From an uncultured Acidobacteriaceae bacterium (GTDB lineage Bacteria > Acidobacteriota > Terriglobia > Terriglobales > Acidobacteriaceae): a DNA stretch of 64,000 bases. Under the pieces are notes generated by a model. That model worked only from the letters and a program-made list of their open reading frames with translations, did no database searches and was not told the DNA's origin. Every line of letters begins with the position of its first letter. Position 1 is the stretch's first letter. The position numbers and the translations under genes are program-made. Location of the stretch: the NCBI GenBank assembly GCA_963720135.1, contig CAVREJ010000028.1:38680-102679 (forward strand). Reading direction: 5' to 3'. Positions 30-4,794 of the stretch are shown here, piece by piece.

Positions 30-1247
30 ATGAGGATTGCTGTGCTCGGTGGCGACGGTTACTGTGGGTGGGCTACCGCTCTCTATCTATCCAAGAAAGG
101 GCACTCGGTTGCCATCTTCGACAGCTTCGCCCGCAGGCAGTGGGACTACGAGCTTGGCGTCCAAACGCTCACGCCGATCCGCGCCTTGCCGGAACGCCTG
201 AAGGTGTGGAAGCAGCTCACCGGCAATACCATCGAGCTTTTCGTCGGCGACATGATCGACTACGAGTCCTTGGCATTTGCGATCAAGGAATTTGAGCCAG
301 AGGCGGTCGTCCACTTCGCCGAGCAGCGGTCAGCGCCGTACTCCATGATTGACCGCCGTCACGCGGTCTTCACACAGGTTAACAATGTTGCCGGGACGCT
401 GAATTTGCTGTTCGCCCTGCGCGAGCTTCGGCCCGATTGCCACCTGATTAAGCTGGGAACCATGGGGGAATACGGCACTCCCAATATCGATATTGAAGAG
501 GGCTATATAACCATTGAGCACAATGGCCGCCGCGACGTGCTTCCCTATCCCAAGCAGCCCGGCTCCTTCTATCACCTTTCGAAGGTGCATGACAGCCACA
601 ACATCATGTTCACCTGCAAGGCGTGGGGATTGCGCGCCACTGACTTGAATCAGGGCGTAGTTTACGGCACCGTGTCGGACGAATCTGCCCTCGATGAAGC
701 TCTCATCAACCGCTTTGACTACGACGAAGTTTTTGGTACAGCGCTGAATCGCTTCTGCGCGGAAGCGGCCGTCGGCCACCCTCTCACGGTGTACGGCACG
801 GGCGGACAGACGCGCGGCTTCCTCGACATCCGCGATACCATCCGTTGCGTCGAGATTGCGTGCCATCACCCTGCGGAGCGCGGTGAATTTCGCGTCTTCA
901 ACCAGTTCACGGAGCAGTTCACAGTTCTCGATCTCGCCCGGATGGTGCAAACCGCCGGCCGGAAACTTGGATTAAAGGTTGAAATCGAGCATCTGCCCGA
1001 TCCTCGGGTCGAAGCCGAGGCCCACTACTACAATGCGAAGAACTCCAGGCTGATCGATCTTGGTCTCCAGCCACATTTTCTTTCCGACGCTCTCCTGGAC
1101 TCGCTGATCAATATTTCTATTGAATACCGCGACCGTATCGATTCGTCGCTGTTCATGCCGCAGGTGAACTGGAGAAATCCCACCAACGACCGTCGGCACG
1201 GGCTCGGCAAAGTTTCTGATGAGTCGCTGATGCCGGAGAAAGTTTAG
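30..1247 (+). CDS. sqdB: UDP-sulfoquinovose synthase (SQD1/SqdB)
   Basis: 405-aa ORF, colinear over its whole length with plant SQD1 / cyanobacterial SqdB as I remember them. Matching blocks: [15 protein letters not shown] Rossmann start, [31 protein letters not shown] (Y-x3-K), [25 protein letters not shown] Shine-Dalgarno lies just upstream of ATG 30. Confidence 0.9.
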
Positions 1248-1264
1248 AGGTACGTCTATGAGGT

Positions 1265-1286
1265 GCTGCGGGAGTGCCCCCGCAGC
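1265..1286. terminator. GC-rich hairpin between convergent genes (possible bidirectional terminator)
   Basis: GCTGCGGG (1265-1272) and CCCGCAGC (1279-1286) form an 8-bp stem with a 6-nt loop in the 43-bp gap between two convergent stop codons. No clear U-tract. Confidence 0.35.
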
Positions 1287-1290
1287 CTGC

Positions 1291-2334: not shown

Positions 2335-2347
2335 TGGACCTCGTTGC

Positions 2348-3505
2348 TTACGACCCAGCCTTCGGCACGACTGGAACCAGAATTCCTTCGCGGATGAAAT
2401 ATTCAACGCCGCGCCAACGTATGGATTTGCGGCCGAAACTGACCAGCCAGATGAGGAAGGCCATCGCATCCCACAGCGGTATCAAGGCCATTTTCTTCCA
2501 CAAGCCGGACTGCCTCATGCCCCAGATGCCAATTAGCCCGGTCATGGCGACTCGAAGCACGGCATAGCTGCCCAGGTATCCCAGCGCAACTGCCATTGAA
2601 GGGCGGGTCGCAATCGCGATCAGCGCCCAGGGCAGTCCCCAGGTGAAGATCAAACCGAAATGACCCCACGGCCGCATCAGCCTCATTACAGTCATCCAAC
2701 GAACGCGTTTGTAAAACAAATCACTGAGCGAGGCGAAATCAGCGACAGTCTGCACAACGTAGGGGAGCAGCTTGACCTCGTATCCCAACTCGGCGATCAG
2801 ACGGCCCACGCGCAGGTCATCAGCCGGACGATTTTCAATCGCCTCATAGCCGCCGAAAGCAGCGATATTCTTGCGAGTGGTGACGATGGTTTGTCCAAAG
2901 GTGAACTTCACGCCGTCCAATTGCCAGGCGACGAAAATCCCCGCAAAGAAATCGGAGATCATCCCGATCGATTGCACTTCCTGGACGAGCGTGGTCTCTT
3001 TGGTAGAAGCGTAAATGCAAGTCGCTGCCCCGACCTTGGGATCGCGGAAGGGCGCCGCCACGGCCCGCAAGTAATCGGGCCCAACCCGGATGTCGCCATC
3101 GGTGATAACCAGCAGCTCGTGCTGCGCTTCGCTTACCAGCCGGACCAGCCTGGCAATCTTGTCGTTGATCGCGCTGCGACCCGATCCGAAAAGCAGACGG
3201 ATGCGGCGTTCTGGAAAGTCCTGAACCAGTTTCTCTAGAATCGGCAGCGCCGGATCATCCGGATCGACGCAAAAAAGGATTTCGTATTCGGGATAATCCT
3301 GGCGGCAGAAGCTGGCATAGTTCTCGTAGGCATCAGGGTCGAGCCCTTTGATAGGCTTCAGGCAGCTTATCGGCGGCGTAAAGTCGGTGTTCGGCGGGAC
3401 TCGCTTCCAGCTCAGAAAGTAGCGTGCAGAACTATAGAGAGCCAGCAGGTAATAGATGCCGGGAATGGCAGCAACAGCGAGGACAATGTAGCTGAGGACT
3501 GTCAA
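2348..3505 (-). CDS. GT2/GT21-type glycosyltransferase (ceramide glucosyltransferase / HpnI-like)
   Basis: 385 aa with an N-terminal TM helix. Motifs: SCLKPIKG...YENYASFCRQDYPEYEILF, acidic ITDGDI motif, C-terminal KRVRW ((Q/R)xxRW-like), and C-terminal TM segments. This is the layout I associate with ceramide glucosyltransferase/HpnI enzymes. Confidence 0.7.
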   Translation of the reverse strand: MTVLSYIVLAVAAIPGIYYLLALYSSARYFLSWKRVPPNTDFTPPISCLKPIKGLDPDAYENYASFCRQDYPEYEILFCVDPDDPALPILEKLVQDFPERRIRLLFGSGRSAINDKIARLVRLVSEAQHELLVITDGDIRVGPDYLRAVAAPFRDPKVGAATCIYASTKETTLVQEVQSIGMISDFFAGIFVAWQLDGVKFTFGQTIVTTRKNIAAFGGYEAIENRPADDLRVGRLIAELGYEVKLLPYVVQTVADFASLSDLFYKRVRWMTVMRLMRPWGHFGLIFTWGLPWALIAIATRPSMAVALGYLGSYAVLRVAMTGLIGIWGMRQSGLWKKMALIPLWDAMAFLIWLVSFGRKSIRWRGVEYFIREGILVPVVPKAGS

Positions 3506-3776
3506 TCCGTCTGCTCTCCAACAAGGGGATTAGGTGGTTTCACGGGAACGGAGGAAAGCCAATCTCGTGGGCGCCAACTCTTGCCAGCGGGGAAGAATAG
3601 GAACCAGATCGACGCCGATTCCGAGCCGCTAAAATATCTCTTAAATTGTGGAGTGTAACATGTGAGGAAATCCCCCGTCGAACCGCGGCACCGCATCGCA
3701 CAGCCGGGTAGGACGAGCGGCGCGGCAGATTTGGGTGGTGCCGAAGACGGCGCCTTTTATATAGGAATGCGATTGC

Positions 3777-4794
3777 ATGCGCGTTTGCGTGACTGGCGGC
3801 ACAGGTTTTTTGGGCGCGGCCCTGGTGCGAGACCTGCTGGCCCGCAAAGTTCCCGTTCGAGTGTTAGCCCGGCATTCGCAGCGTGCCGATCTACTGGAAA
3901 CGCACGGCGCGGAAGTTGTGCGTGGAGGATTGGAAGATGCAGACAGTATCACCCGCGCGGTTGAAGGGGTTGACGTTGTCTATCATCTCGCAGCCAAGGT
4001 CGATACTCCCGGCAAAAGAGCAGATTTCCTTAAAACCAATTTGGAGCGGAACGGAGAGGGTCCTGACCGCATGTCTCCGACAAGGGGTTAACCGCGTCGT
4101 ATATTCCAGTTCACTGGCAGTCTACGGCCCGGTCCGAAACGGCCGGCCAATCGACGAGACAACTCCCTACGATGCATCGCCGCAGCTACGCGACTTTTAT
4201 GCCGAATCGAAAATCCTGGCAGATGAGTTTGCCGTCAGCTTCGCACAAGAAACGGGATTACCGTTAACCATCGTCAGGCCTGGCATTGTGTATGGTCCAG
4301 GCAAGCAACTTCCGGTGGGCCTGCTGGGATTCACGCTGGGGAAGAGCAACTTCGTATTCGGCAATCCGAATAACCGCATTCCACTGAACTACGTGGAGAA
4401 TCTGGTCGATGCGTTGCACCTGGTTGTTCATTTCGCGAGTGATGAGCAACTCCAGCAATTCAATATCCTCGATGACGACGAACTCACCCTGGCGAAGTAC
4501 CACGCGGCGAGAACCGAGGTAGACAAAACGACAACTCATTTTTCCGGAGGTTGGCCGGTGCTTCTTGCGGCGCCTTTCGCGGAAGCCATCCTGCGAATGA
4601 CGCCAAACGGCGGCAGCGTGCGGTTTTCAAGGCACCAACTGAAGCGAGCGCTGCAGGATCGCTGGTATGACACGCATCGAATCCGCGAGCAAACCGGCTG
4701 GGTGCCGAAGGTGCCGCTGAAGGAAGCGCTGTACCGCACATGGAAAACTGACGCGAATCGTTCAACCAAACCTGGGCTGGGAGACGGAAGTTAG
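3777..4794 (+). pseudogene. NAD-dependent epimerase/dehydratase (extended SDR, 3-beta-HSD-like), interrupted by one apparent frameshift
   Basis: ORF 3777-4091 carries MRVCVTGGTGFLG. Overlapping ORF 3883-4794 carries the rest (VYSSSLAVYG, YAESK). The two frames join colinearly (...DFLKTNLE | GTERVLTAC...) if one base is added or removed near 4038-4052. Confidence 0.7.

Follow-up and report, generated by a model that had tools for sequence, protein, structure and literature searches.

Bacteria usually turn UDP-sulfoquinovose into sulfoquinovosyl diacylglycerol (SQDG), the characterised members of glycosyltransferase family 21 (GT21) act on ceramide or bacteriohopanetetrol, and HglT, the glycosyltransferase of the heterocyst glycolipid pathway, belongs to family GT4. 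Here we analyse a 64,000-nt stretch of an uncultured Acidobacteriaceae genome (hereafter the window, G000:C28:38680-102679; genome size 4.93 Mb, 97.8% complete) in which sqdB, a UDP-sulfoquinovose synthase gene, and a GT21 gene lie close to a PfaA-like lipid megasynthase. In the synthases SQD1 and Agl3 the important residues include a catalytic Thr, Tyr and Lys, and His95, Arg101 and Met145 are required in Agl3 (PMC4388408). The Type R secondary lipid synthases have the layout KS-MAT-CLF-ACP(3-6)-KR followed by a phosphopantetheinyl transferase (PPTase), with an optional acetyl-CoA carboxylase (ACC) that lies between the two in Koribacter versatilis (Shulse and Allen 2011, PMC3098273). For subdivisions 1 and 3 of the Acidobacteria, hpnI and hpnJ were reported with hpnK missing, in a survey of hopanoid genes that left intact head groups outside its analysis (PMC5462960).

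The closest relatives of the window genome are soil Acidobacteriota of the class Terriglobia, whose records are labelled Acidobacteriaceae or Korobacteraceae. On balance, we favour reading the locus as two independent systems in contact, with an envelope-modification module of the Terriglobia on the left and a Type R lipid-synthase operon on the right. The module would consist of a MacB-type permease, an EamA pair, an AsnB-like amidotransferase, an ArnT-like GT-C glycosyltransferase, SqdB and GT21, with a FAD oxidoreductase and an extended short-chain dehydrogenase/reductase (SDR) as optional members. We regard the sqdB-GT21 module as real and as a variant of known chemistry.

The sqdB product aligned with the solved SQD1 of Arabidopsis free of gaps across residues 2-383 (E 2.6e-186, 623 bits), and it keeps the GxxGxxG motif (G7-G13), His95, Arg100, Thr144, Met145, Tyr181 and Lys185. 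By family and catalytic residues it is a homologue of UDP-sulfoquinovose synthase with that activity predicted, which agrees with the preliminary description of this DNA, where it was called a very clear synthase gene. Against the NCBIfam model NF041015 it scored 478 bits over the whole model (cut-off 575). The gene is the third of an asnB-arnT-sqdB operon that starts to the left of the window, and two small EamA proteins (PF00892 in both) and a MacB-type permease are encoded there divergently from asnB-arnT. Since the ArnT-like protein scored 90 against the ArnT model, with its cut-off of 567, it is not ArnT proper. We found no SqdD-type GT8 (PF01501) in the 97.8% complete window genome, and no SqdX-like GT4 adjoining sqdB in this genome or its relatives; ten matches to the GT4 domain PF13439 lie elsewhere in the genome, not typed as SqdX or otherwise. 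The earlier statement that sqdB has no sqdX- or sqdD-type partner thus stood for the surroundings of sqdB and, for GT8, for the genome, but it missed the arnT-like and asnB-like partners just outside the window. A GT4 gene about 10 kb from sqdB in some relatives was considered as SqdX and rejected; by our own reading its N-terminus resembles BshA.

To the right, sqdB converges on the FAD oxidoreductase and GT21 genes of the opposite strand, as first described. The neighbourhood was compared in 30 other genomes of the genus with an sqdB orthologue and in 80 metagenomic loci of the same sqdB clade. In the genus, asnB precedes sqdB in 30 of 30 genomes and arnT in 27 of 30 (it is lost or a remnant beside sqdB in G019, G031 and G026), and GT21 follows within about 6 kb in 13 of 30. 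Among the 25 metagenomic loci that reach 5 kb to either side of sqdB, the neighbours were arnT (22), GT21 (19), asnB (19), EamA (14), the FAD oxidoreductase (4) and the SDR (3). Furthermore, in loci from other Terriglobia lineages the set is complete and includes no synthase gene; it comprises genes for the SDR, GT21, FAD oxidoreductase, SqdB, a methyltransferase or a flippase-like protein, an ArnC-like GT2, ArnT, AsnB and MacB. Three genus genomes (G018, G013 and G026; loci L050, L051 and L052) also have a second sqdB with 50-52% identity, located in a polysaccharide-type cluster with GT4-like and flippase-like genes and unrelated to the asnB-arnT module.

The GT21 protein is related to HpnI and belongs to a distinct, sqdB-linked clade. 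It scored 283 bits against the HpnI model TIGR03472, under the equivalog cut-off of 310, while two HpnI paralogues on contig C8, to which it is 36% identical, pass with 326 and 360 bits; it also matches ceramide glucosyltransferase structures (E 4e-24). Because true HpnI copies exist elsewhere in the genome, the window GT21 would be freed for another role. Just before the RW of the donor-binding motif, K266-R267 are invariant in 78 members of the clade (KRxRW), whereas the HpnI paralogues, in small comparison sets of 5 and 6 sequences, carry D/H-Q (D/H-QxRW) and human ceramide glucosyltransferase has R-M. An anionic donor, UDP-sulfoquinovose for example, would fit the added positive charge.

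GT21 also accompanies sqdB across the class. A class-wide draw took 299 Terriglobia genomes from outside the genus; sqdB (at least 74% identity) was present in 40 and GT21 (at least 57%, with a clear gap down to the next matches at 51%) in 39; both were found in 35, against 5.2 expected, a large contrast although the counts ignore kinship. The linkage occurs in convergent as well as tandem gene orders. From this context of linkage and motif, GT21 is a plausible non-canonical sulfoquinovosyl transferase and partner of SqdB, in agreement with the non-canonical sulfoquinovosyl or hexosyl transferase proposed in the preliminary description.

We propose the following working of the module. First, SqdB would use UDP-glucose together with sulfite to make UDP-sulfoquinovose. 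Second, GT21 would take the place of SqdX or SqdD and move the sulfoquinovose onto a hydroxyl of a membrane lipid, a step that the linkage and the motif make rather probable. Third, given that GT21 stands nearest to HpnI and that shc and hpnJ occur in the genome, we put a hopanoid, for example bacteriohopanetetrol, first among the guessed acceptors, with diacylglycerol or a ceramide-like lipid as close seconds; that the Type R product is the acceptor seems very improbable. At last, by analogy to the Arn pathway, the EamA pair, the ArnT-like protein and the AsnB-like protein may serve an outer step of flipping, transfer and amidation, and the FAD oxidoreductase and SDR could be, as a weaker suggestion, an optional redox pair that tailors the sugar or head group. 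Judged by its gene content, the genome is predicted to produce hopanoids: shc and hpnJ passed their cut-offs, and an HpnK-like match fell below its own. A second small EamA pair, paralogous to the one left of asnB, lies directly after hpnJ (G000:C25:293064-295434, L178), which hints that such pairs serve hopanoid-related lipids. In addition, a parallel set on C8 (L157:8130-17217, G000:C8:82-91 kb) contains a second ArnT-like gene, the two HpnI genes tail-to-tail, a GT2 gene and two MacB-type permeases, and the window module looks like a sister of this set.

The start of the FAD oxidoreductase was set at 2334 from homologues of 344-347 aa. A search of solved structures gave a single weak Rossmann match and no close structure. 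Among 1679 representatives of this family, members are often fused to Gfo/Idh/MocA dehydrogenases and sometimes to LPG_synthase_TM or GNAT domains (P0148, P0149, P0152, P0177, P0191), so these distant fusions favour sugar or envelope tailoring over acyl-chain release. The SDR was first described as divergent from the FAD oxidoreductase-GT pair and next to the PPTase gene, and both points are correct; however, it is not intact from 3883 to 4794, its real start being at 3777 and its frame shifted by one extra base. The 104-aa piece from 3777 to 4091 holds the Rossmann motif. The extra base is absent from all five related loci aligned there (L077 and four others) and from low-depth short-read contigs of runs X1 and X4, and it is therefore likely an assembly error. 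For the same reasons we disfavour a true pseudogene, although, with a few sites at which the contigs disagree with the window, a strain-specific break keeps a slight chance. Several other window genes are also frame-shifted, and the synthase lies in three pieces, in contrast to a single 3065-aa open reading frame in G019, which indicates that single-base errors are common in the assembly.

The preliminary description gave the SDR the role of a reductase for the megasynthase product, and our data did not support this. An intact orthologue scored 71 bits against the thioester reductase model TIGR01746 (cut-off 213), and the SDR reached no NCBIfam cut-off. It does resemble OleD, at 133 bits (cut-off 580). 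As the HpnA of this genome it was rejected (137 against 367), a better HpnA candidate adjoining shc on C22. The SDR and PPTase genes lie on opposite strands tail-to-tail with ends that overlap by 4 nt, so they do not form one transcript and the SDR is outside the synthase operon. In many genus genomes the SDR, GT21 and FAD oxidoreductase genes travel as a trio away from sqdB, the SDR moving with these genes and not with the synthase. Since most sqdB-GT21 loci have neither the FAD oxidoreductase nor the SDR, both are optional. A scan for promoters and terminators gave no signal above shuffled sequences.

We then weighed the contact with the synthase from both sides. For the synthase side, 80 loci were fetched by the ACC C-terminus, of which 71 were informative (at least 5 kb downstream). 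An orthologue of the SDR or GT21 was present in 14 of the 80 and sqdB in 5. In a quick IQ-TREE tree of ACC, these 14 loci and the window genome all fall in one 20-row clade (SH-aLRT 99); GT21 or SDR stood beside the synthase in none of the 55 informative rows outside that clade, and in the more distant part of the genus none of 14 genomes had these genes within 15 kb after ACC. Within the clade, PPTase and SDR are separated by anything between 0 and about 7 kb, a space taken up by unrelated genes such as an RND efflux operon. The direct abutment that was first reported is real DNA, since the same junction recurs in L077, L093, L095 and other loci, but it is restricted to one lineage of the genus.

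Seen from sqdB, synthase-operon genes occur within 14 kb downstream in 1 of 30 genus genomes only (G030). Neither the 80 metagenomic sqdB loci (searched for the synthase, ACC, PPTase and acyl-CoA dehydrogenase) nor six loci from other Terriglobia lineages (searched for the synthase, ACC and PPTase) gave a match. In the class draw, scored for the synthase itself and not for ACC, the sqdB-GT21 pair occurred in 35 genomes and the synthase in 14; only one genome had both, against 1.6 expected, so that 34 of the 35 pair carriers have no synthase and 13 of the 14 synthase carriers have no pair. In the single exception, G579, the pair is 420 kb from the synthase. Kinship is ignored in these counts too. 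An ACC-based draw of 250 genomes across the phylum gave sqdB in 9, ACC in 6, none shared and the FAD oxidoreductase in none, too few carriers to weigh. Individual genomes separate the two systems as well: G311 has the full sqdB-FAD oxidoreductase-GT21-SDR set with no Type R synthase found (its completeness is not stated), and G024 (96% complete) has the synthase without sqdB, the module GT21 or the FAD oxidoreductase. The condition that the preliminary description itself set for refuting its model, a lack of conserved synteny between sqdB/GT and the synthase in relatives, thus largely holds, and co-occurrence across the class shows no excess; the suggestion that the megasynthase product forms the hydrophobic part of a glyco- or sulfoquinovosyl-lipid is not supported.

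Because the adjacency is restricted to one clade and its junction varies, a single rearrangement explains the contact. One such event in the ancestor of the small genus clade would have set the end of the Type R operon against the SDR, and very likely the position of GT21 and SDR next to the synthase is a chance product of it and not functional. Most likely, the link between module and megasynthase is a genomic coincidence that gives no handle on the Type R product.

The following points weigh against this explanation as a whole. First, the synthase is nearly universal in the genus (28 of 36 genomes by ACC and six more by the synthase itself), and co-occurrence there therefore cannot speak against a link in trans. 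Second, of the 17 informative rows in the clade that has the adjacency, 14 retain it, at ACC identities as low as about 83%. Third, in that clade GT21 and SDR often stay by the synthase with sqdB located elsewhere (G019, G031, G033, G013). Fourth, what GT21 takes as donor and as acceptor is guessed from its gene context. Fifth, sqdB may feed an ArnC/ArnT branch instead of GT21. The points that favour the synthase amount to no more than shared ancestry would give, and we keep a small probability open for such a link.

The branch just named is the best of the alternatives, tenable though unlikely. An ArnC-like GT2 would load sulfoquinovose onto polyprenyl phosphate, the EamA pair or an LPG_synthase_TM protein would flip it, and the ArnT-like protein would move it to lipid A, a glycan or a protein, with GT21 performing a separate step with an ordinary sugar. 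It is consistent with the co-orientation of sqdB with asnB-arnT, 67 bp downstream of arnT, with the rank of arnT as the commonest sqdB neighbour in the metagenomic loci, and with the ArnC-like GT2 and flippase-like LPG_synthase_TM genes that lie between arnT and sqdB in L180-L185; Sulfolobus, moreover, uses Agl3-made UDP-sulfoquinovose for glycoconjugates (PMC4388408). The window genome has a 55%-identical GT2 on C25, but it is unlinked, and the ArnC-like gene is in the cluster in 3 of the 25 metagenomic loci only. The loss or decay of arnT in the three genus genomes named above also argues against this branch, as does GT21 itself, with its gain of basic residues and its nearly one-to-one correspondence to sqdB.

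That GT21 is instead a non-homologous SQDG synthase is improbable. In that case the product would be ordinary SQDG, a phosphate-sparing anionic lipid, and the other genes would be only loosely associated. The usual bacterial fate of UDP-sulfoquinovose agrees with it, and a genome with no GT8 and no SqdX beside sqdB would need a stand-in if SQDG is made. However, the acceptors of characterised GT21 members are ceramide or bacteriohopanetetrol, any of the ten GT4-domain genes elsewhere could be SqdX, and the tight linkage of arnT, asnB and EamA would be superfluous for SQDG; moreover, the literature that we searched gave no relevant paper on acidobacterial sqdB or sulfoquinovosyl lipids and no report of SQDG in these bacteria.

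Least probable is a coupling of the two systems, at any rate within this genus. The SDR would release the Type R product reductively and the sqdB-linked GT21 would then add a sugar or sulfoquinovose to it, as in heterocyst glycolipids; with sulfoquinovose the result would be a sulfonated long-chain glycolipid, for which the joining rearrangement was kept. The contact in the window genome and 14 related loci, the near-universal synthase, a synthase operon whose Pfam matches include no thioesterase or reductase domain and leave release unexplained, the likeness of the SDR to OleD and a true hpnI pair a few kb upstream of the operon in G009, G014 and G002 speak for it. Against it, the adjacency has a single origin with none outside the clade, the orientation is convergent, the junction can contain unrelated genes over as much as 7 kb, pair and synthase rarely share a genome outside the genus, the SDR is far under the thioester-reductase cut-off, and most sqdB loci lack the FAD oxidoreductase and SDR.

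Features at the contact between the sqdB-GT21 module and the Type R operon (window positions unless a locus is given)
Feature	Coordinates	Strand	Remarks
asnB-like amidotransferase	L001:16154-18085	same strand as sqdB	first operon gene, just left of window
arnT-like GT-C	L001:17974-19962	same strand as sqdB	second operon gene; PF13231; ends 67 bp before sqdB
sqdB, UDP-sulfoquinovose synthase homologue (SQD1/Agl3 type)	30..1247	+	405 aa; E 2.6e-186 to SQD1, residues 2-383
FAD-dependent oxidoreductase, DAO-like fold, uncharacterised family	1291..2334	-	PF01266; optional module part
GT21-family, HpnI-related glycosyltransferase, distinct sqdB-linked clade	2348..3505	-	PF13506; candidate sulfoquinovosyl transferase
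Extended SDR (HpnA/3-beta-HSD/OleD-like)	3777..4794	+	split by one extra base at ~4044-4046; 338 aa in nearest relative
Sfp-type PPTase	4791..5561	-	PF01648; last gene of Type R operon; neighbour, not module
Single-chain ACC	5558..11209	-	BC, BCCP, ACC_central and CT domains; neighbour
Type R PfaA-like synthase, KS-AT-KS/CLF-ACPx4-KR-DH	11249..20139	-	three frame-shifted pieces; neighbour

By its domain layout and the downstream ACC and PPTase genes, the window megasynthase is a catalogued Type R secondary lipid synthase. The operon runs acyl-CoA dehydrogenase, synthase, ACC, PPTase, and PPTase follows ACC in 71 of 71 informative loci; a literature search found no product for a Type R synthase. 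Single-chain ACC was dropped as a marker of the synthase since six genus genomes without it still carry the synthase. In L272-L276 (G034, G028, G003, G022, G001), Type R operons without single-chain ACC have PPTase directly after the synthase, and this ACC-less arrangement is that of four of the five clusters of the 2011 paper (PMC3098273). The four ACP domains of the synthase (open reading frame 11249-15238, minus strand; residues 71, 191, 309 and 417) all read LG(V/I)DTVK, with Thr where carrier proteins normally carry the phosphopantetheinylated Ser. In L159, L160 and L161 (the loci of G009, G014 and G002), the two hpnI paralogues are separated by a hypF-like gene from the Fe-S/ETF/acyl-CoA dehydrogenase start of the Type R operon, and coordinates suggest the same for G011, G012 and G020. 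On the plus strand of the window, an integrase-core transposase, which we take to be IS481-like, lies at 24267-25283, with etfB on one side and the upstream Fe-S oxidoreductase gene of the synthase operon on the other, and with a further copy starting at ~C21:314000. Two tandem amino-acid-kinase-fold genes (30720-32563, also plus strand) adjoin NiFe-hydrogenase genes that run from 32477 onward, and may resemble the two subunits of molybdenum storage protein.

Terriglobia are among the most abundant soil bacteria. SqdB together with a dedicated GT21 is encoded in roughly one in eight of the class-draw genomes (35 of the 299 outside the genus) and in most members of the genus. This gene set is widespread in the Acidobacteria of soil, and it probably puts sulfoquinovose onto a membrane lipid by an undescribed route. 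Should GT21 indeed transfer sulfoquinovose, SqdX and SqdD would be joined by a third and unrelated route to a sulfonated membrane lipid, and the product, possibly a sulfo-hopanoid, would have consequences for soil sulfur cycling and lipid biomarkers.

Among known systems, the heterocyst glycolipid pathway (HglE-type synthase, HglB/HetM reductase, HglT) resembles the window genome in having a PfaA-like synthase, an SDR and a glycosyltransferase close together; here, however, the score of the SDR is not that of a thioester reductase, the glycosyltransferase is a GT21, and the clustering is not conserved. The neighbouring operon matches the Type R layout with intervening ACC as in K. versatilis, but it is a neighbour of the module and not part of it, and the 2011 paper (PMC3098273) mentions no glycosyltransferase for Type R. 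With the Arn pathway (ArnC, ArnE/F, ArnT), the module shares a GT-C of the PMT_2/ArnT kind, a small EamA pair, in some lineages an ArnC-like GT2, and clustering with a nucleotide-sugar enzyme; it differs in that this enzyme is SqdB, that an AsnB-like amidotransferase and GT21 are included, and that the GT-C stays far below the ArnT cut-off. The window GT21 shares family and fold motifs with ceramide glucosyltransferase and with HpnI, the bacteriohopanetetrol GlcNAc transferase, but falls under the HpnI cut-off, has KRxRW in place of D/H-QxRW, and is linked to sqdB and not to hpnJ or shc. Finally, like the systems that pair SqdB/SQD1 with SqdX/SQD2 or SqdC-SqdD, the module has a full-length UDP-sulfoquinovose synthase with all catalytic residues; in place of a GT8 or an SqdX-like GT4 near sqdB, its linked transferases are GT21 and the ArnT-like GT-C.

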